Below are positions 6,211-21,774 of a stretch of 64,000 nt of DNA, piece after piece. Position numbers and translations under genes: made by a program. How positions within the stretch are numbered: position 1 is the stretch's first letter; each line of letters begins with the position of its first letter. The stretch comes from Nitrospirota bacterium (lineage in GTDB: Bacteria; Nitrospirota; UBA9217), in the NCBI GenBank assembly GCA_963737155.1, contig CAVTRN010000002.1, forward strand, positions 320,001 through 384,000. The letters run 5' to 3'. The notes beneath the pieces are model-generated. The model did no database searches. It was not told where the DNA came from and saw only the letters and a list, made by a program, of their open reading frames with translations.

Positions 6211-6325
6211 GTGTTTGTCACTTTTTAATGTGAGTCTCACGCTCGCAGAAGCACATCACGGGCAAGTTACCCTCAAATTGATCAAAATATCAGCTCGAAC
6301 TGGTTTTGATCTGTTCAGTCCGCGC

Positions 6326-7180
6326 TCACGGCGTATAGTACTTGCCGTTTACTTCATCTCCAATGATAGCAAAATTCGCCGTTGATGTTTCAAGTGGATC
6401 GGATTTCCATGAAAAACCGATCGATGGAACTTCAACCGAGGCCTCAAGCTGAGCTATGGCTTTGAAGCCATCGACACGGAATTGTTTCTGAGAATCGTCG
6501 TAGCTGAACTTCTCGTTTGTTGCTTTCCACACGATACGCAAGTCCATTCTAGCAGGTATTGTTTCTGCCTTGAACTGCGGCCATTTTGGCTGGTCTATTA
6601 TTTCAATCCCTTTCATTTGCAGTACCGCCGAACGTCCATCATTGCTAAAAGTGACTCCTCCTTCGGCTACAGGCACAACCCAGTAAAGGCCACACGGTCC
6701 GACCGGAGGATGAAAATCATGCACCTGATTCGCAGGGGCCAACTGCCCCTTGAAGAGGGTCACTCATATATGTGCGAACGTCCCATTTTGAGCGGTTCTC
6801 CCCGTGTAGTACTCACCCTGCATGATATCGTTATCCGTTGTAGGATTTCCAAAGGCAAGGCGATTGCCCTTGTTATCAGTGCCCATGCCTCTAAAATCTG
6901 CACATCGGGCGACCTTGCCTTTGAAATGATAAATGTGCGATGGCTCCGTGGTAGGACCAGCTGGCTGGTTGTGACTGCCGTTCTTATCAAGCCAAGGAAT
7001 GGGAAAGGGGTAATTACTTCCATCGTAAACGAAAGGTTCTTTTTCGACTTCGTTATGTTTACCCGTCGCATCAGCATGGTTTGGAATTTGAAGCGCTGAC
7101 GCTGCCGCAAGTATCGAGCCAGAAATAAGAAAACGTCGCCTACTGAACTCGAAATTGGATGACAAAAATTCTTTTTTCAT
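6326..7180 (-). CDS. Tat-exported hypothetical protein with in-frame TGA at 6766-6764; candidate selenoprotein of about 284 aa (otherwise two abutting ORFs)
   Basis: SRRRFL twin-arginine signal with ADA cleavage site. ORFs 6764-7180 and 6326-6763 are in one frame, separated only by TGA. A SECIS-like hairpin follows. Confidence 0.7.
6734..6750 (-). promoter_or_regulatory. Putative bacterial SECIS element
   Basis: mRNA UGA-GUGACCCUCUUCA-AGGGGC-AGUUG-GCCCCU: 6-bp perfect stem, 5-nt loop with G then U at loop positions 2-3, 19 nt between UGA and the loop. Confidence 0.6.
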
Positions 7181-7257
7181 GTTAACCTCCCTTTCTGTAG
7201 TCCTCGTTAGAAGAAGCTTCTGCCAAAGTAATGCAAATTAGGCTTTTTGATTTCAGT

Positions 7258-7387
7258 ACCGTTCCTGAAACCATGTATTTTATTTCCATATACTAGGACG
7301 GCAGCCGAACAGGGCTGCTGCCGGTTAACGTCAAGGCGCATGCCTCTGATGTAGCAGAACAGGTTAAACTACCGAGTTTAAGGAACC
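7258..7387 (-). mobile_element. 130-bp non-autonomous miniature derivative of the TnpB element at 18658-20538
   Basis: 7350-7258 matches 20445-20538 with 4 substitutions and 1 indel. 7387-7360 resembles the element left end. GGT at both junctions. Confidence 0.8.
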
Positions 7388-7423
7388 CATAATGAAGGTA
7401 AAAGATACTTCCTTCCTGCCCTC

Positions 7424-8254
7424 CTATTCCGCAAGTGCAACGGTGGTTTCGGATTCCTGGGAACGCATCTGCTCTTCCATTACCATATGGGTGATTACCT
7501 GCTGAAGACTGAGGAACCATGGTGAGGTCGTATCTCGTGAATGAGGAAATCTCACTTCAACAATCTTTTTCACCGTGCCTGGCCGATTGGTCATGACGAC
7601 CACACGGTCAGCGAGGTAAATGGATTCCTGTATGCTGTGGGTGACGAAGATGATGGTCTTTTTGAATTCCATCCAGATGCGAAGGAGTTCATCCTGCAGC
7701 ATACTGCGAGTCAAGGCATCCAATGCGCCGAAAGGTTCATCCATTAGCATCATCGGTGAATCGAGCGCGAGGGCTCGGGCAAAGGCTACCCGCTGACGCA
7801 TTCCCCCCGACAAGTCCTTAGGATACCGGTCACGGAAATCCGAGAGTTGCAGCTTGTCCAAAAACGCATCGACCTTTAACCTGACAGCGGCCTTCGGCAA
7901 GCCTTTGATCTTCAATCCAAATGCCACATTCTCATCCACATTCATCCATGGGAACAGCGCATACTCCTGAAAAACCATGGCGCGGTCCGGCCCCGGAGCG
8001 GCGACCTCTTTGTTATTGGCGATCAGTCTTCCTGACGTAGGGAGAGAGAAACCGGCAATGGCATTTAAAAGGGTCGATTTGCCGCAACCTGATGGTCCGA
8101 GGATGCAGATGAACTCACCACGGTGGATGTCCAGATTGAAATCCTTAAGCGCAACAATTTCCCGGCCTTCGGAACGATAAACCTTGTTGACTTGCTCGAT
8201 TCTGACGATTGGCTCGTTAGCAGCGCTCATTCTTCCAGTTAACTCCGTAAGCAT
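7424..8254 (-). CDS. NitT/TauT (sulfonate/nitrate/taurine-type) ABC transporter ATP-binding protein
   Basis: Walker A GPSGCGKST, signature LSGGMRQR, Walker B LMDEPFGALD. Confidence 0.93.
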   Translation of the reverse strand: MLTELTGRMSAANEPIVRIEQVNKVYRSEGREIVALKDFNLDIHRGEFICILGPSGCGKSTLLNAIAGFSLPTSGRLIANNKEVAAPGPDRAMVFQEYALFPWMNVDENVAFGLKIKGLPKAAVRLKVDAFLDKLQLSDFRDRYPKDLSGGMRQRVAFARALALDSPMMLMDEPFGALDALTRSMLQDELLRIWMEFKKTIIFVTHSIQESIYLADRVVVMTNRPGTVKKIVEVRFPHSRDTTSPWFLSLQQVITHMVMEEQMRSQESETTVALAE

Positions 8255-8260
8255 GTTCTT

Positions 8261-9109
8261 CTATTCGCCCGTTTCAATGCTCCGACGCCAGCGAAGCAAG
8301 TAATTGTTGATCCGGCTCATGACCGTGTCGATGGCCAAACCCAACATGCCGATAGTAATCATCCCGGCAATAATCTTGTCTGACCAGAAATATTCCCGAG
8401 CCTCAATGATCCGGTAACCCAGACCGTTATTGACTGCAATCATTTCGGCAACAATTACGCAGATAAATGCCACGCCAATTCCTACGCGCAGTCCGGTAAG
8501 AATTTGGGGCATCGCTGCTGGTACGATGACCCGGACAAAAAGCGTCTTTTTCCCGGCCCCCAGGTTCTGCGCTGCGCGTATGTAGATCGCATCTACATTC
8601 CGGACTCCGGATATTGTGTTCATGAGCACAGGAAAGAATGCGCCGAGACTGATGAGAAAATATGCCGGCGGGTTCCCCAACCCAAACCAGAGTATTGAAA
8701 GAGGAACGTATGCAATGGGGGGGATCGGCCTCAAAATCTGTATGAGGGGATTAAAAAGACGATGGACTCTTTCGAAGTTCCCCATCAGAAGTCCCAGGGG
8801 CAGTGCCAGACCGGCGCCGATAAGGAAACCGATAAGCACCCGGAGAAAAGTTGCAAACAGATCGCTGGGAAGCTCTCCTGAAAATATCCATACTAAATAG
8901 GTCATCTGTTTAGGATCGAAAGGCTCAAGAGGGCGGGCATACGCTATCCATCGTGAAAACACCTGAGTTGGGGCAGGAAGGGCCTGAGGATTGAACACTT
9001 GATTTCGGGACAGCAATTCCCAAACGACAAGAATTCCAACAGGAATGATGGCCGACTGAATGATCTGCCTGATCATTTTTGCCACCGATTGTTTTTGTTT
9101 ACCTGGCAT
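8261..9109 (-). CDS. NitT/TauT ABC transporter permease
   Basis: RPIPPIAY, EAA-type loop IRAAQNLGA, multiple TM segments. Confidence 0.93.
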   Translation of the reverse strand: MPGKQKQSVAKMIRQIIQSAIIPVGILVVWELLSRNQVFNPQALPAPTQVFSRWIAYARPLEPFDPKQMTYLVWIFSGELPSDLFATFLRVLIGFLIGAGLALPLGLLMGNFERVHRLFNPLIQILRPIPPIAYVPLSILWFGLGNPPAYFLISLGAFFPVLMNTISGVRNVDAIYIRAAQNLGAGKKTLFVRVIVPAAMPQILTGLRVGIGVAFICVIVAEMIAVNNGLGYRIIEAREYFWSDKIIAGMITIGMLGLAIDTVMSRINNYLLRWRRSIETGE

Positions 9110-10067
9110 TTAGCTCCTTCTTGGCTTTATCGAGTAAATCGAGCCTGACGTAGTCCTTTGCAACGGGTGGTTTCGTCATTTTCGCAATACCATACTTGAC
9201 CATCATGTCTGTCGAAATTTGTACCTGTGCAAGTGTGACATCATAGGTAAATGGCGAATTTTCGATGGCTTGTCGGTAGTCTTCGCTCGAGAGCTGACCC
9301 TTGAACATCTTATCCCGAACATACTGTTCAGCAACATCCGGATGTTCTATAAAATATTTTGTTGCTTCAACGAAGCATTTCATAACCCGTTCAGCAACAT
9401 CACGCCGCGTGTTATACATTTTTTCAGTCATGATCAGAGTTCGAACCGGCTCTCCAAGCGGCGTATCATAGGGTTTGATGATCTCAACGCCATAACCCTT
9501 GCTGATGGCCTGCGAGGACTGGGGTTCCGATTGACTAATGGCGTCAACGTTCCGGGAGAGAAGAGCCTGGTTAAGGTCGGCATAGGCCATGTACTCGATC
9601 TGTACATCCTTGCCCGGGTTCACAGAATAGGTCAAATTATATTTCCCTAATTCGGCAAGAAGGACCAGTTCCTGAGCGCCACCACGGGGCACTCCTACCT
9701 TTTTCCCCTTGAGATCGGCGATTGAATGCCATTTCATGTTGGAGCGTCCGACTATCCGCGCACCTCCACGGGCAAATCCTGCCACGATATAGATCGGGAC
9801 ACCTGCAGCACGGGCCGCAATTGCACCGTCGATAGCACTCGCCGCGATGTCAATGTCACCTGCGATGATTGCCGGCATAATATCGATCCCCTTGGGAAAT
9901 ATGCGCTCCTCTATCCTGAGATTGTACTTAGGCGCGATCTCCTTCATATACGATACAGTCCCGTAATGGGCGAACTTGAGGTTTCCGAGGCGGACCAAAT
10001 CTTCAGCATAAACTGATGAACTACACCAGACCATTACCCACAGAAATATTGCCGCAATCTTTTTCAT
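9099..10067 (-). CDS. NitT/TauT ABC transporter substrate-binding protein (SsuA/TauA-like)
   Basis: Signal peptide MKKIAAIF..VYA. SIADLKGKKVGV motif. GGAGG RBS. Confidence 0.9.
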   Translation of the reverse strand: MKKIAAIFLWVMVWCSSSVYAEDLVRLGNLKFAHYGTVSYMKEIAPKYNLRIEERIFPKGIDIMPAIIAGDIDIAASAIDGAIAARAAGVPIYIVAGFARGGARIVGRSNMKWHSIADLKGKKVGVPRGGAQELVLLAELGKYNLTYSVNPGKDVQIEYMAYADLNQALLSRNVDAISQSEPQSSQAISKGYGVEIIKPYDTPLGEPVRTLIMTEKMYNTRRDVAERVMKCFVEATKYFIEHPDVAEQYVRDKMFKGQLSSEDYRQAIENSPFTYDVTLAQVQISTDMMVKYGIAKMTKPPVAKDYVRLDLLDKAKKELNAR

Positions 10068-10598
10068 CGAATGCCTCCTCGCCATGGCCGTCTCCCTAAC
10101 TCATCGGGAATCCCGCTTTTTCCCAGCCCTCTACCCCTTCGTTGAAAACCCTGACATTCAGAAAGCCCTTTCCGATATATTCTGCCACCCGAGCGGCGGC
10201 ACTCGCCTTTTTTGTTTAGGGTCAATAGAATATAATTTCCTGCCCTTTAGGCCACGAATTGATCTTGTCTCTAAATTCTGTTATGAAATAGCCCGTCAAG
10301 ATATGTCGTTTATTGATAAGCCCTATTTCTAGTATAACACGAGGAGAAATTGGGAGTATTCGGCCGCCTTCAAATTTGCCCTCCTCGGTGTGATTTTTAA
10401 AAAGTTATCAATTTTCATTATCAGTTTTTTCGCCTAATTGACAGATCATTTTTCAGTGGATTCTTGACAACGGGTTTTCATGATATATAGTCATAATAGA
10501 CTCGGTTTTCACAATCTTTTAGATAAATCAATGAACGTCGTTTTTACTACCCACTGTAACTGAAGTGCTCGGCAGGACGGGATCTGTAATCTATTTAG

Positions 10599-11240
10599 GT
10601 GCTTAAAATGCAAGAATTGCGATATTTTGCAATTATGTTTAATTTGCTGACGGCGCTTTTGGATTCCTGGACTGTATGGTCCAGTGTTGCAGGCGATGAG
10701 GTTAAAGGGAAAATATGGCGATTGAAGTATCTTCAGCTAGCTTACGGGCAGGGGCTATATCGACCCTATGAGAAACTCGTCACTCTGGCCGCCAAAGAAA
10801 CTGGTCTGCCAGAATCCAGCACCGACAAACTTGTTAAGAATTGGAAGAAGCTCAAACCGTGGACAGAGGTGAAAGAGGTCCTGACCGAACTGAATCAGCA
10901 CGTTCCTCTAGCGGTAGTCACTAACTGCTCGCAGGTTCTAGGGCTGCAGGCGGCCGCTCTTTGCGGAGTCAAATTTGACGTTGTAGTTACATCAGAACGA
11001 GCCGGTTTTTATAAACCTAACCCTGCTCCGTACCTACTTGCAATACGCGAATTGGGTTTTGAACCAAAGAAGGTATTGTATGTTTCCGGGTCTGCCTATG
11101 ACATTCGCGGGGCTATCGATGTGGGGATGGATGTATATTGGCATAACCGGATTGGCATGTCCAAACCGGAAGAAGTACCGGAGCCGGTTATTATGGCCAA
11201 CAGCCTTATGCCGCTAAAAGATTTTGTATGGAGGGCCTGA
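10599..11240 (+). CDS. HAD-superfamily hydrolase (haloacid dehalogenase-like), motif I reads FNLLT
   Basis: VVTNCS, GFYKPNPAPY, YVSGSAYD motifs. The expected motif I Asp is Asn. Confidence 0.8.
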   Translation: MLKMQELRYFAIMFNLLTALLDSWTVWSSVAGDEVKGKIWRLKYLQLAYGQGLYRPYEKLVTLAAKETGLPESSTDKLVKNWKKLKPWTEVKEVLTELNQHVPLAVVTNCSQVLGLQAAALCGVKFDVVVTSERAGFYKPNPAPYLLAIRELGFEPKKVLYVSGSAYDIRGAIDVGMDVYWHNRIGMSKPEEVPEPVIMANSLMPLKDFVWRA

Positions 11241-12133
11241 TGGGCTTTTAGGTCAAACAAAGGGCTGATCAGAGCATAGATGGGTTGTCATTTATGGAAT
11301 GAACTACCAATTTAAAATATCACAGTTTGTTGTGTAGTTCAGAAAGATTCCCTCTGTGGACGCTTGATTGAAATGTGGATTTGAATAAATTCGAGGTTTT
11401 ATGTTGGTGCTTTGGCTAGAGATTTATGAACAACCCTACAATACTGAATCCGGGACATCTTTGCCGGGATTCCGCCGGAAACTCTCCTCAAGTGATCATA
11501 TAATATTATTTGTATATTCCATCCTACAGGGTAGTTTTAAGTTCCAGATTTTCTTCCAGAAGTTTTGGAGTATTCATCTTTAGCAACATTTAACAGTACA
11601 AGCGGATTTTTCATATTTAATCTACCTATCTTCTGCCCATTCATGGACATGCCCATTCATGGGCATTGACATAAATCAGCAGCAGGCATATAGTCATCAA
11701 TGCCATTTTGAATATTATTGTCACGTTCATTGCCAAATCTGTTAACATCGAATTTCGGATATTAGTTATGCACACTCTGATGCAGCCGTACCGATAATAA
11801 ATAACCTGTTAGTCCAGAAAGAAGCGCTGATCGAAACCCAAGAATATTTTATTTCGAAAAAGTTTACTGCCATGATGAAGTGGTCAGCGGCGATTTGTGC
11901 TATATTCGGTATCCTCGAAAACAGCATTATATTCGTAGACCCTCCTAAGAAACGCGCCTTTGGCTTTTTCCCCAATATTATAGGCATACCTATTTTTGTT
12001 GGAGCTGGCTATTGCGTTCAGTTTCTAAGGCGATCAATAAAATATGCGATAACTGTCGAGGCTGCTGGGATAAGGGATATGCATCAATCGTCTACAGCAC
12101 TTGTTTGGCAAGATGTCGGACAAATAGCGGGGT

Positions 12134-13387
12134 GTGCTGGACATGGTGGCTAGGCGGTCGCTGGGGCGGCAGTTCGAGTGGCTCTGGGCGGCGTATGCGA
12201 TCAGCGTGTCCGGCACGTGGTTCGCGTTCGGTGCGTTTCCCTTGATCGCGATCCTTGTGCTGCACTCCGGGCCGACCGAGGTGTCATTGCTGGCGGCTAC
12301 GGGGCTGGCAGTGGGGGCGGTGGTGGCGGTGCCGCTCGGCACGTGGGTGGAGTTCCGCAGCAAGCGGCCGGTGATGATTGCGATGGACCTGACCCGGTTC
12401 GCGGCATTGATGAGCGTCCCCGCCGCGTTCGTGTTCGGCTGGCTCAGCTTCGTCCAGCTCCTGGTCGTGTCGGTCATCGTCGCCGCAGCCAATATCGCCT
12501 TCAAGGCGGCCAGCGGCGTATATCTGAAAGCGCTCGTGCGGCCGGAGGACCTGCTCGTCGCGAATGGGCGGTTCGAGTCCACGACCTGGATCGCCACGGC
12601 GCTCGGACCACCGCTCGGTGGGGTCGCGATCGGGCTGTTCGGCCCGGTGACGACCGTGGTGGCCGATGCGGTAAGCTACCTGTTCTCGGCAGTAGGCATC
12701 CGCGCGATTGGGGAGAGGGAGCAGCGCCCTGTACGAATTGATGCGCCACGGCTCCGAACCGGCGAACTGCTTGACGGGTGGCGGTACATCCTGACTCACC
12801 CGGCGCTGCGCCCGCTGTTCTTCAACACGGTCCTGGTTAACGGCCTGATCATGGCGACCTCGCCGCTGCTCGCCGTCCTCATGCTCGGCCGCCTCGGGTT
12901 CGCACCCTGGCAGTATGGCCTCGCGTTCGGAGCACCCTGCGTCGGCGGCCTCATCGGCTCACGACTGGCTCACCGACTCGTCGCGCGGTTCGGGCAGCAC
13001 AAGGTCATGCTCGTCGCCGGGGCACTGCGCGCGTGCTGGCCGCTCGGGTTGGCCTTCATCCGCCCCGGCGCTGCCGGGCTCATGCTTGTCATCGCTGTCG
13101 AGCTTGGGCTGATCACCTGCATAAGCGTATTCAACCCGGTGTTCGCCACCTACCGTCTGGACCAGACCGCGACGGATCGAGTCGCCCGCATCCTGTCCGC
13201 GTGGTCCGTCACCAGCAACATCACCATCGCGTCCATGACCGCCCTGTGGGGCCTGCTGGCCAGCATCACCAGCCCCCGAACCGCGATCGCGATCGCCGGT
13301 GTCCTCATGCTGGCCACACCGCTTTTGCTTCCCCGACACGACTACGTACCGCAGCACGAGCCGGAACCGGCCCGGAGCTACATATGA
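12134..13387 (+). CDS. MFS transporter, high-GC, Actinobacteria-like
   Basis: About 12 hydrophobic segments and a G-x-W-V-E-F-R-x-K-R-P-V-M motif-A variant. GC visibly much higher than the flanks. Confidence 0.88.
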   Translation: MLDMVARRSLGRQFEWLWAAYAISVSGTWFAFGAFPLIAILVLHSGPTEVSLLAATGLAVGAVVAVPLGTWVEFRSKRPVMIAMDLTRFAALMSVPAAFVFGWLSFVQLLVVSVIVAAANIAFKAASGVYLKALVRPEDLLVANGRFESTTWIATALGPPLGGVAIGLFGPVTTVVADAVSYLFSAVGIRAIGEREQRPVRIDAPRLRTGELLDGWRYILTHPALRPLFFNTVLVNGLIMATSPLLAVLMLGRLGFAPWQYGLAFGAPCVGGLIGSRLAHRLVARFGQHKVMLVAGALRACWPLGLAFIRPGAAGLMLVIAVELGLITCISVFNPVFATYRLDQTATDRVARILSAWSVTSNITIASMTALWGLLASITSPRTAIAIAGVLMLATPLLLPRHDYVPQHEPEPARSYI

Positions 13388-13985
13388 CACACTGCACTCG
13401 CCACTGACCCCTGAAGGCAGACAGCGGCTGGTCCGCCGATGCAGGTTGGTCTCGACAGTGGTGACGCGATGGAGACGACCAAGCACTGCTGGATCGCTAC
13501 CCAGTATCCAGCCCAACCCGGACGCCTAACCCACCATCGACTGCATTATCGACCTGCGGAAACGACATCGTAGTCGGCCGCACCATCGTCTCGCAAATCA
13601 TCGACAAGGGAATACTGATCAGCACGGCTACAGTCACTCAACACCTCAAGGCCAACGACCGGAACCGGCTGCGCCATTTAGACGCCGTCATAAGAGAACC
13701 GAACTGCAAGCCAGACAGGCAAGATTATAGCCGACTACCCCGTCCACATGATCCATCTTGACGTGAAGAAGGTCGGCTGTATCCCCGATGGCGGTGGTGA
13801 GCGCATTCACGGCAGGGATCATCGCAAGCCGGAGTCGCCGCGGTTGCCAAGACAAGGCCGCTCGGGCCGGATACACCTACCTTCACTCGGCTATCGACGG
13901 GTTCACCCGACTCGTTTACACCGAGCCGCACGACGACGAGACCGCCGCCACCGGCGCAAAAACGCTTCTGTTTCGCCGGAGTATG
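13384..13985 (+). mobile_element. IS481-family transposase pseudogene
   Basis: Fragments PLTPEGRQRLVRRC, HMIHLDVKKVGCIPDGGG and GYTYLHSAIDGFTRLVYTE lie in different frames. Confidence 0.85.
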
Positions 13986-14534
13986 AGCGACATGACGAAA
14001 GTTATTACAACTTATACTCGACATACGAGACCCTTTAAATATAAGATATTCTTTACTTAACGAGCTATAATTGCTAAAGATGAAAATGGGAAAATATCTA
14101 AGCTGGAGGTTTAAGTGACATCTACGAGTGTGTAAACTTGCAGAAGAAGAAAGTCACAAAGAATGTTCTAAATGCGCCAGAACTGAAGCTGAGCCCACAA
14201 AAGACTTTGAAACACGGTTCAGTGAGTTCCGTGAGCGACCATTGATCATGCCCTTGGAGGAGTTTACTTCTCAGAAAAGTGAAGAGTATCCCGTTGTGCC
14301 AACCACATCAAGAAAGTCCGTTCTTGTGGAGTTCCTGATAGAAAGAGAATTTTAAGATAGTCAATATATCAGGACAGCAGTTGACAAACATCGAAATAAA
14401 AAAATAAATGTTGCGAACTCGCTCTGTAACTTGCCGCAATATATATGATGGATGGTCGGGTTATCAAAATAGGCAAATGGTGTGAAAGCATAATAATACA
14501 AATTTGATTATACAATAAAAAAGGGAGAGGGATT

Positions 14535-15632
14535 ATGATTAATAAATGCTTTTCCCGTACCATTATTTATTTACTATATATCATGGTTGCATTGACCCGC
14601 GTAGTCGGTGCCGGAGACGAACCACCATTGAAGGCATCTGAACAATGGAGAAAAGATTTGAAACGACTGGTTATGCTCTCCAGAATTGTTGCTGATAAAC
14701 CTTCTTTGTTAAGTCAAAAGCCTTCAACTCAACAAATTCCTGACTTAGCGGCTGAACCCTTTTGTTGTATATCGCCTGATTTGAATGAATGCTTATTATC
14801 CCAAATATCTAGCATGCTCTTGCAAATAACAACAGATACTGCAAATATATTCGATGCAACACAAGGAGCAGCGGTTCAAATAACCTTTGGTAGGGCAACA
14901 GATGTATGGACTGAAAAAGACATTTCAAATAATTGGGACACCCTGCAGAAATGGACAAATGTATTGGGACCAGCGGCCGTAGTTGTAGGCGCAATACTGA
15001 TATCTCAGCATAAAGAAGGCAGTGCTTATCGTTTGGGAGAAGAGATTGCTGGCAGCGGCGCTGCGTTGATAATAGTAGGTGATTTGGGTACGTTAGGCCA
15101 ACTGTTTGGTGGCGTCAGTCCAAAACATAGAGCAAAGACTGCAATAAGAACGATTAATACATTGCAAGATATTGAAACGTCAAGGCAAGCATACGAAGAC
15201 TCGCAACTTATTTATGGGTTTTTAGATAATTATAGTAATAAATCTAAAAAGCTTTTAAATACAATATTATCGTTATCAAACGATGCTAAAGCCTTAAGTA
15301 GTGTAGCTCCTTCTCCCGATAAATCGAAGAGGATTGTGGAACTATGTGATAAAACGAGAGAGGTAGTAAGTGATTTTAAAGAGACTGCCGGCTTTACAGA
15401 AGATTATGCAAATCAACTACTGATTCTTTATAAAAAATACCATGATGAGGTTTCTTCACCTGAAGATAAGTTAAAATTTGAGGATGCACGGCAAAGCGTG
15501 AATAATTTTAATGCTAAATATGATGAAGTAATTGTTCCTTATTTGCAAGGCGTACCTGAAGTAATTGAAGCAATGCAAAATATAAAGGCAGCTTTCATCG
15601 CAAACAGCATTGCTGATAAACATTACTTCTAA
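14535..15632 (+). CDS. Hypothetical secreted/membrane protein, helical C-terminus
   Basis: 365-aa AT-rich ORF with RBS, an N-terminal hydrophobic segment and two Gly-rich hydrophobic stretches. Confidence 0.7.
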   Translation: MINKCFSRTIIYLLYIMVALTRVVGAGDEPPLKASEQWRKDLKRLVMLSRIVADKPSLLSQKPSTQQIPDLAAEPFCCISPDLNECLLSQISSMLLQITTDTANIFDATQGAAVQITFGRATDVWTEKDISNNWDTLQKWTNVLGPAAVVVGAILISQHKEGSAYRLGEEIAGSGAALIIVGDLGTLGQLFGGVSPKHRAKTAIRTINTLQDIETSRQAYEDSQLIYGFLDNYSNKSKKLLNTILSLSNDAKALSSVAPSPDKSKRIVELCDKTREVVSDFKETAGFTEDYANQLLILYKKYHDEVSSPEDKLKFEDARQSVNNFNAKYDEVIVPYLQGVPEVIEAMQNIKAAFIANSIADKHYF

Positions 15633-16118
15633 CCGCTTTCTAGCGGAATGCTGACAAAAGCAGTAAAACAGCATAAAATGTATCCGTCCAAGAAACGTTT
15701 AAAAAAAGCGTTTTCTTTATGTTGCTGTACATCATTTGATGATGGTGGGAGGATTTAAATAAACTCATAACCGAAGGTCGTCGGTTCAAAACCGCCTCCG
15801 CTTCCAAACTTATCATGAGGATACAGGATTTTCTGTAGCCTCTTTTTATTGTGCCGAGCATGTTCGACAGCTTGGATGTGCAAGATATATGTGGGTAGGG
15901 CATAAGGTTATTCTTCCCCATTAAAGTATAGGAAAAAAATTCTTCAAGACTACCCAAAATAGCAACCTCCTGCTGAGAATTACTTTTGGAACGTAGAGTG
16001 AAATCCCGTAGTTCGGCATTGTTGGTCACCCTCCTGTCGTGAAACGGGCCTGAATGATGGAGGGCGTCGGGGACAGACAACCATGCTTGGCCGTGATCGA
16101 CGTTTTAATTAACGCCTC

Positions 16119-16349
16119 TCAACCTTTCTTGTAAAACCCTTCTTTTTTAACATTACGCCGATGCCCCGTTGGGGGCTTTCCGATAGTATCAACTTTTTTC
16201 TCCATTTCGCCGGTATGTCTCTCCTGTCTTTCCATCACTATCTTTTCTGCATCGACCCAATTCTTTAAATCATTCCCGTGAACTCTGCCTGCTTTTTCAT
16301 AAAATTCGTACGCAACCCTTGCAATCTTGTCATGTATATCTTTTTTCAT
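16119..16349 (-). CDS. DUF2934 domain small protein
   Basis: IARVAYEFYEKAGRVHGNDLKNWVDAEK. GGAGG RBS. Confidence 0.8.
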   Translation of the reverse strand: MKKDIHDKIARVAYEFYEKAGRVHGNDLKNWVDAEKIVMERQERHTGEMEKKVDTIGKPPTGHRRNVKKEGFYKKG

Positions 16350-16413
16350 TATCGTTCAATCCTCCCTCTAAATAATATTGCTTATGAGTGGTCCCATTTC
16401 AATCCTATCGACA

Positions 16414-16818
16414 CTATTTCTGAAAGTACTTCCGGACTTTCGCCGCAACCTGACGATCAGTCATCTTGTCAACAGTTTCAATGCCTGCGATGAGTCCACC
16501 GAGGTTGCTTTTTTTTAGACGTTTTATTAGTTCGCCCGTTGCCTCACCAGGGCCAAATATCAGAATAGATCTAGCATCACGAATACTCGCGATTACCGCA
16601 TCGTAGTAAATGTTGAGATGTCCCGTAAACCTTTTCTGACGGCTGTCAGCTGACGGTACTTGCAGCGGTTCATAGCGACCTTTAAGGGGGGAATCACCGG
16701 ACCGGCGGAGTTGTTTTAAAGCCTTCGATATTACCAGCGTGGTCTCTTCCCCTTTATCCGTAACAGCCACGATAATAGCCTTCCTATGGTCGATCCATAA
16801 ACCCATCGTCGTTTTCAT
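16414..16818 (-). CDS. Host-attachment / eRF1-fold-like small protein
   Basis: GLWIDHRKAIIV ... ILIFGPGEA ... DKMTDRQVAAKVRKYF. Confidence 0.75.
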   Translation of the reverse strand: MKTTMGLWIDHRKAIIVAVTDKGEETTLVISKALKQLRRSGDSPLKGRYEPLQVPSADSRQKRFTGHLNIYYDAVIASIRDARSILIFGPGEATGELIKRLKKSNLGGLIAGIETVDKMTDRQVAAKVRKYFQK

Positions 16819-17019
16819 AAATGTCTCCTTTAGCCGCTTACGCTTATATATAAAATTATACTACTAATAAAAGCTTCTGGAAGCCGCTCTTCTATCTCTC
16901 TTCCTCTTTGATGTAGATTTTACGTATCATGTTCTTACTGAGAACTCCAGGAGCGTTGTCGCCCGAGTAACCTTAAAGGAACGCCTAATCCCCGCAGGAT
17001 TTGTCCTGGACGTCTTTAA

Positions 17020-17340
17020 ATATGGCGGCATCGAAGATCGCTCTGAAAGAAGCGCAATTCTTCAGATGCGTTCCGATATAATGGCTGATCTCCGGAAACC
17101 GGTAGATGATAGCTGACAGTTGAAAGAACCTGCCCCTTGCCACGTGGGTTATACTTGGGAGTGAGAGTGCTCAAATACACAGCCACAACCAAGGGGGCAG
17201 GTAAGAATAATTGTGTCACATTCATCGGTCATGATGTCCACAAAGATTCCATAAAAACCGCGGTTGCAGACGGTTTCAGCAAGCAGGACGTTCCTCACCG
17301 CGGCACAATCGGTAGCAGCCTGGATTCGCTAGCACTTCGT
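17020..17340 (+). mobile_element. IS110-family remnant: structured non-coding left end plus N-terminal transposase stub
   Basis: TFIGHDVHKDSIKTAVAD matches the IS110 G-x-D-V-H-K start. Preceded by about 190 nt of nested inverted repeats. Confidence 0.65.
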
Positions 17341-17617
17341 TCTTCATGGAGCTGATATAGTTGCATCTGTTGGAAAATAAAAACTGCAATTGGAAGTAGT
17401 TAGAACGCGCCTTAGCGCTGGTACTCCTGCCTCCACCTGCCCGTAAAAACGAGCTATAATTAGTTAAGAATTCAAGCATGATCATCCACGTTAAACTTAT
17501 CGTTTTTGCCGCTATGCTTAACGTCGGTTGTAGGTATGGTTCTAGAGGCCACAACAGGGCACAAAGTCATTGTCACGTAAAAACGAGGTTTTAAATGAAA
17601 CAGGAGGTGACCAACAT

Positions 17618-18061
17618 ATGAAAACCATCCTCAAGGCGTTCTATACAAAACCGCTTGTGATCTATCTAATATTAGCGTTGATTGAGATCTCGACTTTCGC
17701 CGGACCAGCCGAGGCCATGTTTTTCCCTGCCGCACCTCATCAGAATATGACCGAGGCGACCGCATTATCCGCGAGCCGGGCGGCAGATATGGCTAAGATC
17801 CAGACGGCATTGGAATCGAAGATTCTCCAGCAAAAGCTTATGGACTACGGGCTATCTCCTGAGGAGACTATGGCGCGGGTGAACAAACTTTCGGACGAGC
17901 AGATTCATCAGCTCGCTACACGCGCGGACTCGCTCCAAGCGGGCGGATACGGGGGTGGTGCTGGGGTTTTGGTGTTTCTCTTCCTGGTGCTCATCATCGT
18001 TGTGTTGATTGTGGCACTCACATACCCCGGGTACGGGTACGGGTACGGCCATCACAGATAG
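17618..18061 (+). CDS. PA2779-family protein
   Basis: LQQKLMDYGLSPEETMARVNKLSDEQIHQLA..LQAGG followed by a TM helix. AGGAGG RBS. Confidence 0.85.
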   Translation: MKTILKAFYTKPLVIYLILALIEISTFAGPAEAMFFPAAPHQNMTEATALSASRAADMAKIQTALESKILQQKLMDYGLSPEETMARVNKLSDEQIHQLATRADSLQAGGYGGGAGVLVFLFLVLIIVVLIVALTYPGYGYGYGHHR

Positions 18062-18424
18062 GATCACGTTTCTTAAATAAAACGGGAGGGAACCACATAC
18101 GAAGAATTTACTCAATATTTCTATGCGAAGCCGCTATTAGCCGCTGTGATTATGGCGTTTAAAATGCATTCTGAGCGTAACACAAAGTGACAAATGTCCC
18201 TAACCTGTCTCTCAACTCGAACCGAGAGAGCATGTACCGGATGCTTTCCAAAAAGGGAACTCCGAGATTAAAAGCATCTTTACCCTGCTGCACTCGCTGG
18301 GGATGAAACTGTATGTCGAGCCGAAGACTAGGTCGGCGAAGTCATCAAAGACCAAAAAGGCGGGATAAGATAAGCAAAGGGTGCGCTCGGATTCGTGAGT
18401 TAAAATATTCGGACGCGCCGATTT

Positions 18425-18657
18425 ACGTGAGGCAACGACCAGACCACAGTTTGTAGCAAAAGATAGCGAAAAAGGCATAGATTACAAAGAAAGCCGCAGA
18501 TGATATCTTAGAATGCATCATAGAAGTAGCCTAACAAAGAAGACAAAACACTTTCACGTTGCCTGGACTTGGCAAACTCGTTCTCGCTCAGCGTAAGGCA
18601 CGTAGCGGCAGGAACCACGCAACAGGAGAGACTAATCAAATTAAGGCAAAGAAGGGT
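18425..18657 (+). pseudogene. HU pseudogene, 5' part (interrupted by the TnpB element)
   Basis: Aligns to 4444-4677 (FTLPGLGKLVLAQRKARSGRNHATGET..IKAKK) with internal TAG, TAA and a frameshift. Confidence 0.85.
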
Positions 18658-20538
18658 TCTCAACTGGTCAAGCTTTAATTGTATATTAGCAACTTTTATG
18701 ATATATTATATTCAATGGAATATATAAATAAGGGCTAAGCATCAGTAAACTAACAACTTGAGGCCGTAAAAAGTGTCAACTAGGAAAAGCACCAAAAATA
18801 AGAATGGTGGTGGAAAAGACACCCTGTCATTCACTGCAAATATGCTTCTGGATGATCACCCCTACCCGGAAATAAAGACCTCTCTTTATGCCATCCTCGA
18901 CGATACGGGCATCTTGTATGGCCGTATAAAGCGGACCCTGTTTAAAGACTGCATTCGCTCCGGCAAAAAAACAACAGAATTAAAGAACGAATACCTGTTA
19001 ACGTACAAGATCACTGCACGGCAGTACAATGCAGTCCGCTATGACCTGGACGGGAATATCAAGGCGGTAACGGAAATCAACAAGCTCAGAATCCTGGATC
19101 TTGAAGAGAAAATAATATCAGTAAAAAAGTGGATAGCAAACAATGAGTCAAGAATACTCAAAATAACGGATGATGTGAGTATCCCAAGCACTGAAAAAAA
19201 GATCCAGGCAAAGGAGCTTCAGTATCGTGTTGATAATAAGAAACGAAAGCTTGCTTCTTTGGAGCAAAAGCTTTCCAAGCTCAGGGAAGATCAGAAAAAC
19301 CGGCGGGTAAGGATTTGTTTCGGGTCAAACAAGATATTCAGAAAACAATTTTCCCTGGAGGAAAACGGGTACAAAAGCCACAATGAATGGCTCCTGGACT
19401 GGAAAAGGTCTCGCAATAACACTTTCTTTTGCCTTGGCTCGAAGGACGAATCGGGCGGGAACCAAACGTGCACCCTGAAGTCCGATGGGACGATGAGATT
19501 AAGGGTCCCTGATTGTATGAAGGACAAATACGGGCATTCCATTGTAATTCCCCGCATAAAATATCCCTATGGTCAGGAACATATCGAAACGGCCCTTCAG
19601 GCCGGAATAGCGATTTCTCACAGGTTTACCAGGGGCGAGAAGGGCTGGTACCTGCACACGACGGTAGATGTTCCAAAGGCAAAAACAGTTACTTACAAGC
19701 CAAAGGAAATCGGGTCTATCGGAGTGGACGTCAATGAAAAAGAAATCGCGGTTAGCGAGACCGACCGGTACGGGAATTATGTCAGGAGCATAACATATCC
19801 ATCCTGCGTTAAGGATTTGCGTACTGAACAGACAGAAGCAATGTATAGCGATATCTGCAAGTCCATCGTGGACCGGGCAGCCAAGACGAGAAAACCTATA
19901 TCCCACGAAGAACTCGATTTTAGCAAGAAGAAAGCTTCCTTAAAAGAGCAGGGCGTTACTTACGCAAGGATGCTTTCCGGTTTCGCCTACGGAACCTTCC
20001 TCACCCTGCTGGATAGAAGGGCGGCAAAACATGGCGTTTCCGTGCTCCCGGTCAACCCTGCTTTCACCACGACCATAGGGAAATTTAATTACGTGGACCG
20101 CTATGGTATTACGTCGCATGAAGCTGCGGCGCTGGCCATCGCGAGACGCTCTCAACATTTCAGTGAAAGGCCTGATTCCGCCAGAATCGCGCCTCCCGTA
20201 CCTGCAAGGAATCGGGGGGTGCATATCTGGAGCATTTGGAGAAGGCTGAAGACGAGACGGGCGGGCGGTAGCATTAGCCTGACCGGCTCAAGGCGGTCCT
20301 TACAGGACTCCTCAGGTTGCGCTGAACCACAAACGAAATTTACATCAACGAAGACAGCGCAATCCATGCGGCCACCTCTTGCTACAATAAAGAGTGTGCA
20401 CCGCCGCATGGGATCCCAATTCAAAAATCACGGGACTTGGGTGAATCAGAGGCATGCGCCCTGACGTTAACCGGCAGCAGCACTGTTCGGCTGCCGTCCT
20501 AGTATGTGGAAATAAAATACTATGGTTCCAGGAACGGT
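18658..20538 (+). mobile_element. Non-autonomous tnpB-only element (IS200/IS605/IS607 superfamily)
   Basis: Ends are defined by interrupted HU homology, with GGT at both junctions (18655-18657 and 20536-20538). No transposase gene. Confidence 0.8.
18773..20464 (+). CDS. tnpB: TnpB-related RuvC protein (large, no CxxC zinc ribbon)
   Basis: RuvC-I IGVDVN, RuvC-II ISHEELDF, VNPAFTT and RuvC-III-like TSHEAAALAIARR. Long N-terminal coiled coil. Confidence 0.85.
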   Translation: MSTRKSTKNKNGGGKDTLSFTANMLLDDHPYPEIKTSLYAILDDTGILYGRIKRTLFKDCIRSGKKTTELKNEYLLTYKITARQYNAVRYDLDGNIKAVTEINKLRILDLEEKIISVKKWIANNESRILKITDDVSIPSTEKKIQAKELQYRVDNKKRKLASLEQKLSKLREDQKNRRVRICFGSNKIFRKQFSLEENGYKSHNEWLLDWKRSRNNTFFCLGSKDESGGNQTCTLKSDGTMRLRVPDCMKDKYGHSIVIPRIKYPYGQEHIETALQAGIAISHRFTRGEKGWYLHTTVDVPKAKTVTYKPKEIGSIGVDVNEKEIAVSETDRYGNYVRSITYPSCVKDLRTEQTEAMYSDICKSIVDRAAKTRKPISHEELDFSKKKASLKEQGVTYARMLSGFAYGTFLTLLDRRAAKHGVSVLPVNPAFTTTIGKFNYVDRYGITSHEAAALAIARRSQHFSERPDSARIAPPVPARNRGVHIWSIWRRLKTRRAGGSISLTGSRRSLQDSSGCAEPQTKFTSTKTAQSMRPPLATIKSVHRRMGSQFKNHGTWVNQRHAP

Positions 20539-20558
20539 GTCAAATTCGGAGTAGCAAA
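20445..20558 (+). ncRNA. Predicted 3' part of the TnpB omegaRNA/reRNA scaffold plus flanking guide; true 5' end probably further upstream inside tnpB
   Basis: Right-end sequence is conserved in the second copy at 7258-7350, with a GGCAGC...GCTGCC hairpin. Conservation stops exactly after CAGGAACGGT. Confidence 0.6.
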
Positions 20559-20595
20559 AGTCGTTAAACATGCAATTCTCCGCACAAAGAAGTAA
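20539..20595 (+). pseudogene. HU pseudogene, 3' part
   Basis: Encodes VKFGVAKVVKHAILRTKK* versus VKFRVAKAAKDAILGTK* in the intact copy. Confidence 0.85.
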
Positions 20596-20639
20596 TCACC
20601 CCCCTTTGTTTTGTTATTCTAAGCCCATTCCCAATCGAG

Positions 20640-20995
20640 GGGGCGACCGTACTCGCGGCTAAATGGGGAAGGGCTCTCATAGTCTATCTGAAACGCCGCG
20701 GTGTCGCGTCCTGATTTTCGGCGAGCATTGGCGTCGCGCTTCGTTCAAACACAAGCATTTCTGGTACTGCAGCGGGCTCATGGCCGTTACCGCTCGGAAA
20801 TGATGGTGGAAGGTCGATGTACGCAGGTTATCCTGCGCTGCGAAGTAATCGATGCGCAACGGCTGTGTGAAGGTACTCTTCAACCAATCGATTGCCCGCG
20901 CTATCTGTTGACTCTGACTTCCCGCCGATGATCGGCGCAAGGACCGGGATATCCTTCGGGTCAGTAAGCAAGTCGATCAACCGTTGAACACTTGA
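20640..20995 (-). pseudogene. AraC-family regulator C-terminal fragment
   Basis: QIARAIDWLK..FTQPLRI..STFHHHFRAVTAMSPLQYQK, with frameshifts and no N-terminus. Confidence 0.8.
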
Positions 20996-21774
20996 CACTT
21001 GCTCAATCCTCAATAATACTATAATAAAGATAAAGCGCTCCCTTTTCGTGGAAAAAAGGCAACTCCTACCGCGATTGTGGGAGGCCGCCGCTGGTGATTT
21101 AAATGTGGCTATGAAAATAGCACTTTAGTCGGATTGATATATTCTTGAAGCGGACGATCCTTAAGAAAAGAATTCGGCTCCCAACAGATCCGATGTCGTC
21201 CGTGTTAGTAGCCGTCCGCGGAAAAGGCGGATGCGACCGCAGATCTCACGGAGTCCACACGCTTTCTCTATGATTATGTGGCGGAGGTATCGGACTGATA
21301 TTCGAATTGGTGTTCCATTGCCTCTGGGAGCCTGTGCATGTGGCGAGGGTGAACCTTGTGTACTTCAGCCTGCACGCCGGCCGCGTTCGGCTGAAGTTGT
21401 TTGATCATCCCGCAAAAGCCATGATCGCTTCCGATGACATGTTTCTGCCTGGCTAGAAGGACAACAAGTACACCACAAATCCTAATGCGGAACAACGAGG
21501 AACGCAGTTGAACTACGCGCCAGTGCTACTGGTGTGTGGTGAAGACGATCTCCTCTTTACAGAATCTGCCAGCCGGAAGATCTTTCAGCGCTATTACAGC
21601 TCGGGGTACAGGTTCAGCATAACGTATACCCCGGTTTTTGACACGATCCGGTCGTCTACACCTTGATGATAGATCATCTGGACTGGAGCGCAGACTGGTT
21701 TGCCGGAGAACCGGCGCCAAACAATTGTCCCTCGTATTCTAAAAATGTCAATGCGTATCAGGCAGGAGTGAAAA

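Follow-up and report, generated by a model that had tools for sequence, protein, structure and literature searches.

The 64,000-nt stretch of Nitrospirota DNA analysed here (the window) contains, between an ABC operon and the gene that follows it, a protein-less segment of transposon origin, which we call the stub. Its structure raises a key question: is it a miniature element that loads a TnpB nuclease with a second guide in trans, as the original prediction proposed, or the leftover of a larger transposon? On balance, we think it probable, by a little, that the stub derives from an IS607-family element, designated A below, as a gene-less miniature, and that today it is a remnant, passive and immobile, that serves the cell in no way. 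A trans guide-RNA function is possible, and in the accessible part of the source, this idea has already been printed for the PATEs of the IS605 type (bioRxiv 10.1101/2023.03.14.532601).

Structure and surroundings of the stub

On the minus strand, positions 7388-7258 of the window read GGGTTCC...CAGGAACGGT, with ...TTAT|GGG as the left border and ...GGAACGG|T as the right one. The segment has no coding capacity and is composed of two parts, namely, a 38-nt left part that opens with the GGG junction of the family and the last 93 nt of the family's right end, which stop exactly at the right boundary of the parent element. The coordinates of these and all other features are given in Table 1.

Table 1 Features of the stub and of its nearest full-length relative in the window
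Feature	Positions	Strand	Remarks
Whole stub	7258..7388	-	131 nt with all three G of the left GGG counted, ~130 bp otherwise
Left part, 38 nt	7351..7388	-	Left inverted-repeat arm plus CCTGTTCTGCT; no significant likeness to family left ends
Left arm of terminal inverted repeat	7365..7386	-	17/22 matches with the right arm
Right-end module	7258..7350	-	93 nt, 94.7% identical to the A right end 20445-20538
Hairpin, helix 7	7331..7349	-	A-subfamily-type sequence
Hairpin, helix 8	7299..7324	-	Loop CTGTTC, candidate pseudoknot with the 3' tail GAACGG
Hairpin, helix 9	7271..7297	-	1-nt deletion in the 3' arm
Right arm of terminal inverted repeat	7261..7282	-	Right terminus of the element; from inverted-repeat comparison
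Flank in guide position	7238..7257	-	ACTGAAATC...
Full-length A element	18654..20538	+	1885 bp; its one gene is TnpB-related; closest to the stub's right-end module
TnpB-related ORF, 563 aa	18773..20464	+	Cas12f/TnpB fold (predicted), no zinc ribbon, non-canonical RuvC-III
Scaffold of the full A element, helices 1-9	20275..20538	+	Approximate span, ~260 nt, from covariation

The stub is co-directional with the genes on both sides. The stop codon of an ABC ATPase gene (7424-8254; Pfam ABC_tran, 1.2e-32) lies 33 nt before it, and the ATG of the next gene, at 7180, lies 77 nt past it. The latter gene contains in-frame TGA at codons 139 and 285; the predicted position of the stub directly upstream of a candidate selenoprotein gene was thus confirmed. 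Read through these TGA codons, the gene gave no match in Pfam. Its product (6300-7180, minus strand) carries a twin-arginine-like signal, SRRRFLISG, and a homologue with 73% DNA identity is present in another species of the genus. A distant blastn search of the phage collection with the stub returned no match.

Since no terminator-like site was detected on the stub's strand in the interval 6700-7900, from the ABC gene to the next gene, read-through from the ABC operon into the stub appears plausible. The RNA data came from one public metatranscriptome (peat), with a 0.04 share of sampled words, and its contigs stem from relatives at 90-95% identity. Among these relatives' contigs, none bridged the junctions of the stub. 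A 355-nt contig over the right end of a related element (stub region 7298-7330) showed a word depth of 65.6 compared with 5-16 for contigs on the neighbouring gene, and contigs of this kind cannot prove RNA.

The parent family and its TnpB-related protein

The borders of the A element were set from six genomic copies, which are 96-99% identical over ~1.8-1.9 kb; in the genome, A is represented by five intact frames and one damaged copy. A sister subfamily, B, is 2381 bp long and has eight copies that are full length in one piece. The TnpB proteins of the two subfamilies are 57-58% identical. Upstream of its tnpB, the B element carries a 189-aa gene (orfA) that matches the NF033518 model 'IS607 family transposase' with 197 bits (cutoff 110) and Pfam Resolvase PF00239 at 5.3e-18; this serine transposase gene is absent from the A copies and from the stub. 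The parent family is therefore classified as IS607, which is marked by a serine-recombinase TnpA with a DNA-binding domain at its N terminus, and A is a non-autonomous member. The parent is not IS200/IS605, the group with hairpin ends by which PATEs are defined.

The junctions (G)GG|T...GGAACGG|T were found at all five A left ends, all six A right ends and in 11 B copies, and the insertions of both subfamilies lack target duplications and have unrelated flanks. These junctions agree with the GG rule at insertion sites given for IS607 in the accessible part of a published account (PMC6188088). The junction letters had been predicted to be common to the stub and the TnpB element, and this was borne out: every full copy has ...(G)GG|T at its start and ...GGAACGG|T at its end, like the stub.

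As far as the accessible parts of the sources describe them (bioRxiv 10.1101/2023.11.20.567912, PMC6188088), IS607 elements and IStrons likewise combine a serine TnpA with a TnpB-like orfB, insert at (G)GG without target duplication and have a right end in ...CGG with the guide next to it; the motif targeted by their transposase doubles as the TAM, so that the guide-RNA complex recognises the vacated site. For the IStron of C. botulinum, the first of these sources gives, in its accessible part, TGGG as both the transposase target and the TnpB TAM and a scaffold that ends in UCGG. Unlike the elements described there, the stub is gene-less, has terminal inverted repeats and lacks a recognisable family left end, and the A-type TnpB is without a zinc ribbon and has a non-canonical RuvC-III.

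The 563-aa ORF (18773-20464) had no Pfam match, and the NCBIfam matches of orfB were sub-threshold (guided_TnpB, 4.6e-12 and 45.9 bits against a cutoff of 100; also TIGR01766); the source labels on its relatives read 'IS605 OrfB' or 'TnpB-related protein'. An AlphaFold model of the A-type TnpB, built with 15 sequences, reached a mean pLDDT of 78.9. Foldseek matched this model to Cas12f, Cas12k, ISFba1 TnpB, Fanzor2 and ISDra2 TnpB with a probability of 1.00 and E values down to 2.9e-8. Judged by the model, the orfB product has a predicted RuvC fold with the WED/REC architecture, which places it in the TnpB/Cas12 superfamily. Residues D319 and E379 are invariant in the alignment with 14 relatives. 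The canonical D-E-D triad and C4 zinc ribbon were not found: SHEAAALAIARR stands at RuvC-III where DxDxN is expected, H449 occupies the place where RuvC-III normally has Asp, an invariant E465 follows 16 residues later, and there is no CxxC pair. These features fit the description of RIIIr-4, compared by description alone; in the accessible part of its report (PMC10691335), RIIIr-4 is a major TnpB clade with a rearranged RuvC-III and no zinc finger, and its authors think it active.

The right-end module and the guide-RNA scaffold

A 93-nt match between the stub and the right end of the TnpB element had been predicted, and BLAST of the region against the window reproduced it: 7258-7350 (minus strand) aligns with 20445-20538 (plus strand) at 94.68% identity over 94 columns, with four substitutions and a one-base deletion. 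The A right end is the sole strong partner of the stub region within the window. Two of the four substitutions are polymorphisms common to other A copies (TATATGG in 3/6 and GGTTTC in 2/6). The private changes of the stub are thus limited to two substitutions and one deletion, namely, a C>T change in helix 7 that leaves a G-U pair, an A>C change in the loop of helix 8 and the loss of 1 nt in the 3' arm of helix 9. So few private changes indicate that the right-end module is young.

Another important question is how much of a guide RNA this module represents. Fourteen right-end regions from four genomes were aligned over 306 columns, and RNAalifold predicted 43 pairs, 20 of them with compensatory changes; the addition of a third terminal hairpin raised the structure to 48 pairs in nine helices. 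Paired cells amounted to 88.6%, compared with 32-43% in controls with the partners slid by 1-3 columns, 22 of the 48 pairs were changed on both sides (5-14 in the slid controls), and none of 500 shuffles was equally good; these figures have to be read with the kinship of the sequences in mind, and with the fact that the structure itself comes from them. A scaffold of ~260 nt and nine helices in the full elements is supported by this covariation. It overlaps the last ~70 codons of the A-type tnpB gene, which encode a poorly conserved C-terminal tail of ~70 aa modelled with low confidence. The full elements show the arrangement by which an omegaRNA is recognised, a structured RNA that overlaps the 3' end of tnpB and stops at the element boundary. 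We know of no characterised guide RNA for the TnpB clade without a zinc finger. An Rfam search of 6500-21000 at E<=1 returned two sub-threshold chance matches only, neither RAGATH-18 nor any guide-RNA family being among them.

The homology of the stub to this scaffold starts right after helix 6. Only helices 7-9, with 17 of the 48 pairs, are retained, and the other 31 covarying pairs (helices 1-6) are gone, including those of a long-range helix in which the conserved CTTGGG, located directly 5' of the break, takes part. A guide-RNA scaffold is supported for the parent family, with its nine covarying helices, and is incomplete in the stub, which keeps three helices of nine. The helix-8 loop and the 3' tail form a candidate pseudoknot. 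In a set of 52 distinct right ends, the two words are fully complementary in most cases, two ends show double changes from G-C to A-U, and one shows a one-sided change; both words are intact in the stub. With z -1.75, the stub's fold does not stand out in stability.

ISDra2 provides a useful comparison. In the accessible part of its study (PMC10097598), the 5' half of the 231-nt scaffold is dispensable and the working core consists of the 3' 116 nt, which fold into four stems and in which the 3' tail forms a pseudoknot with a segment further upstream. The guide RNA of ISDra2 overlaps the 3' end of tnpB and a disordered C-terminal tail, as in the A element, and the 93 nt of the stub, with their candidate pseudoknot, are similar in size to the ~116 nt that suffice there. 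The two families have no sequence relation, however, and the upstream helices covary in the A family, which indicates that they are under selection.

Left boundary, copy number and rival explanations

Does the stub also have a left end? The original prediction saw a likeness between its left ~30 nt and the left end of A, which proved to be within chance by local alignment, shuffles and a profile HMM. The local alignment score of 15 was equalled by 12% of mononucleotide shuffles, and 283 of 2052 genomic 40-mers starting with GGGTTC reached it too. The profile HMM, built from nine left ends, those of A and B together with seven taken from three sister species, recovered the known left ends and several relic left ends and did not find the stub up to E=100.

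What the left part does contain is an inverted copy of the right end. Its terminus, GG + GTTCCTTAAAC, matches the inverted right terminus GTTCCTGAAAC at 10/11 positions, and in register the repeat reaches 17/22, so that the right terminus is mirrored over the opening 22 nt of the left part. GG followed by an inverted match of at least 10/11 occurs at four sites on both strands of the 4.84-Mb genome (9.7 Mb), the other three being unrelated to the stub, and 0 of 20,000 random 150-nt windows contained such a site; for the extended repeat, the shuffle p was 0.008-0.011. In addition, CCTGTTCTGCT in the left part matches, at 10/11 positions (shuffle p 0.046), the word in the helix-8 loop of the right end, and CTGTTC is a conserved word near the left ends of the family as well. 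Since the terminal inverted repeat is significant, the left boundary probably exists, and there is moderate evidence that it is a real recombination end of an atypical kind. The repeat is atypical for IS607 because the A and B elements have no terminal inverted repeat, only subterminal similarity, and IS607 elements are described as lacking such repeats in the accessible part of the literature (PMC6188088). The base before GGG is also unusual: it is a purine in 16/16 A and B copies with a left end and in 6/7 copies of relatives, which suggests an RGGG target or TAM, and a T in the stub, which carries TGGG.

A repeated MITE/PATE family is not supported. The stub is single copy in its own genome, where its left part and junctions occur once, and the 29-mer of the left part at <=3 mismatches had no match in the 63 other genomes of the taxonomic family. 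Exact scans, which miss diverged relatives, found the 20-mer of the left part in neither public genome contigs nor metagenome contigs and the 25-mer of the right flank, used in the search for an empty site, in no metagenome contig. Nor was an empty-site orthologue found in the 40 relatives searched. In these, the ABC gene is conserved and the downstream gene is conserved but located elsewhere, and the intergenic DNA is not conserved; genomes G003 and G011 share the ABC gene (83% identity) and differ in the DNA downstream of it, and in G007, the downstream gene stands behind another neighbour, with an unrelated upstream region and no stub. At C2:1261754, a 23-nt look-alike stands alone, and its surroundings show no paralogy.

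In the sister species G011 (L073:1037-3418), a full B-like element with TnpA and TnpB lies right after the stop codon of the orthologous ABC gene, and in G003 (L074), the same site behind the ABC gene is empty (TTAGGG|CAG). The G011 insertion is a separate event in the same region, since it lies 33 nt from the position of the stub.

Other gene-less or internally deleted derivatives of the family are present in the genome of the stub (C1:1616623-1616953, C2:2748630-2748904, C2:1060712 and C2:1574243). They are independent of one another, have differing breakpoints and are each single copy. Such one-off derivatives with varied breakpoints fit ongoing decay rather than an amplifying MITE family.

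The interpretation as a MITE- or PATE-like unit thus survives in part. The stub is protein-less, ends at the right boundary of the parent and carries the 3' portion of the guide-RNA region, followed by a different flank; on the other hand, it is single copy, its left end is not demonstrable by family likeness and no empty site was found. Of the two ends that such a unit has, the right one is present and the left one is unrecognisable, yet bounded by a significant terminal inverted repeat and the GGG junction. PATEs of the IS200/IS605 group, in the accessible part of their description (bioRxiv 10.1101/2023.03.14.532601), resemble the stub in being protein-less with a guide-RNA end and in depending on TnpA and TnpB from elsewhere; they differ in belonging to a tyrosine (Y1), hairpin-recognising family and in being usually multi-copy, whereas the stub belongs to a serine-recombinase family, is single copy and holds a third of the scaffold. 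Our literature search, in the parts of the sources accessible to it, found no paper dedicated to IS607 MITEs. The original prediction had named an untranscribed single copy with no empty-site orthologue, or the lack of scaffold parts needed for TnpB binding, as grounds against it, and on these terms the balance leans towards a relic.

The right flank of the stub, as predicted, is unlike those of all six A copies. In the published IS605/IS607 model, the guide of each copy is its own right flank, and RNA-loaded TnpB cuts the vacated site (TAM + flank), after which recombination restores the element. A guide taken from the own flank is a property of every copy; therefore, the 'different guide' of the stub is nothing special. 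The claim of a second guide acting in trans is weakened: in this model, the flank would target the stub's own vacated site and no new one, and a search of the genome at <=1 mismatch found no second TAM-adjacent match to it, the best other matches having one mismatch and no GGG before them. Comparison of the right flank with the six A flanks by eye showed no common guide, which would have pointed to an origin by homing or copy repair.

How, then, could the stub behave, and which explanation accounts for it? Its movement would need TnpA from the B copies, and RNA-guided retention would need an A-type TnpB made elsewhere, for example, 11 kb away. A read-through transcript from the ABC operon would contain a 5'-truncated scaffold (three of nine helices and the candidate pseudoknot) followed by the stub's own flank, which in the published homing model would match only the vacated site of the stub. 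We consider it unlikely that the stub is a working trans guide-RNA locus of this kind, co-transcribed with the ABC operon, in which the 93-nt module would be the functional core, A-type TnpB would load it and the flank would guide, protecting the stub from loss after excision. This explanation is favoured by the sufficiency of the 3' 116 nt in ISDra2 and by the PATEs whose guide RNAs are used by TnpB in trans, both as given in the accessible parts of the sources (PMC10097598; bioRxiv 10.1101/2023.03.14.532601), as well as by the three hairpins and the intact candidate pseudoknot (CTGTTC/GAACGG) of the stub, private changes that leave helix 7 paired through G-U and the pseudoknot letters untouched, the five intact A-type TnpB frames in the genome, the strand without a terminator-like site between both genes and the recurrence of homology starts at -94 to -99 treated below. 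Against it stand the loss of the 31 covarying pairs, the 1-nt deletion in helix 9, a pseudoknot with two compensatory cases and one contrary case, a loop word that also occurs in the family left ends and may instead be a transposase site, the one metatranscriptome without a contig across the stub junctions and the single copy, which gives no sign of selection.

The atypical left part leads to an explanation of another kind, to which we give a similarly low probability: a plain 5'-truncated right end, produced by a deletion from the upstream flank to -93 of a full A-type copy, with no left end at all and a coincidental inverted repeat and GGG. The failure of the left part in both left-end tests (local alignment and profile HMM) and the atypical base before GGG agree with such a truncation, as do the many right-end relics in the genome with breakpoints from -49 to -452 and the full element in the same intergenic region of a sister species, which points to a frequent landing place. 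Nevertheless, coincidence would have to place, 37 nt from the break, one of just four GG + 10/11 inverted matches in 9.7 Mb and to extend it in register to 17/22 (shuffle p about 0.01). The preferred explanation, a miniature derivative that has become a passive remnant, accommodates the repeat as a real boundary and meets difficulties of its own. A young right-end module is joined to a left part unlike the A left end, so that simple internal deletion of an A copy is inadequate and a lost subfamily with another left end, or another origin, must be assumed. The terminal inverted repeat is unlike IS607, A and B, and T instead of a purine precedes GGG. Furthermore, IS1535 needs ~40 bp of left-end motifs (LE 20-59) for end pairing according to the accessible part of the source (PMC6188088), which is more than the stub seems to carry, and the inactivity of the remnant is deduced from copy number only. 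It is highly improbable in our view that the stub has been exapted as a leader, either within the 5' UTR of the gene with the TGA codons or by stabilising the ABC operon at its 3' end. Only its position, 77 nt from the ATG and 33 nt from the ABC stop, speaks for this. In another species of the genus, the homologous gene is preceded by unrelated DNA that lacks the stub, the 40 relatives searched show no conservation of the intergenic region, and the stability of the fold is ordinary.

Interpreted as a remnant, the stub is routine transposon debris, the annotation of which corrects the parent family to IS607 from IS200/IS605. The by-products of the analysis are a covariation-supported ~260-nt scaffold for a TnpB clade without a zinc ribbon, an IS607-type miniature with terminal inverted repeats, which are normally absent from the family, and a natural truncation series of the scaffold within one genome that could guide minimal-RNA experiments. 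If it is true that the 93-nt module loads TnpB, it would represent a compact scaffold for a poorly explored nuclease clade.

A broader form of this idea is that the 3' module of ~95 nt is the natural minimal guide-RNA core of the zinc-finger-less, RuvC-III-rearranged TnpB clade, that the stub acts as a guide-RNA gene in naturally trimmed form, transcribed by read-through of a host operon and programming TnpB in trans, and that selection set the breakpoints at -94 to -99; taken as a whole, this is distinctly doubtful. Of the 18 partial right ends listed, 3 have the start of their homology at -94 to -99, a fourth such case (C1:1616953) was identified by eye, and the starts of the remaining partial right ends are scattered from -49 to -452. 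The clustering, noticed post hoc, is suggestive of either selection for a module or a deletion hot spot.

The derivatives that start at -94 to -99, at the foot of helix 7, are located at C2:2582173, C2:1574243, C1:1616953 and position 7350 of the window. Two of the gene-less derivatives illustrate the variety of their composition. In C1:1616623-1616953 (~330 bp), 124 nt of filler rich in hairpins separate an A-like left end from a right end of 97 nt; in C2:2748630-2748904 (~275 bp), a B left end and the start of tnpA are followed by a right end of 72 nt.
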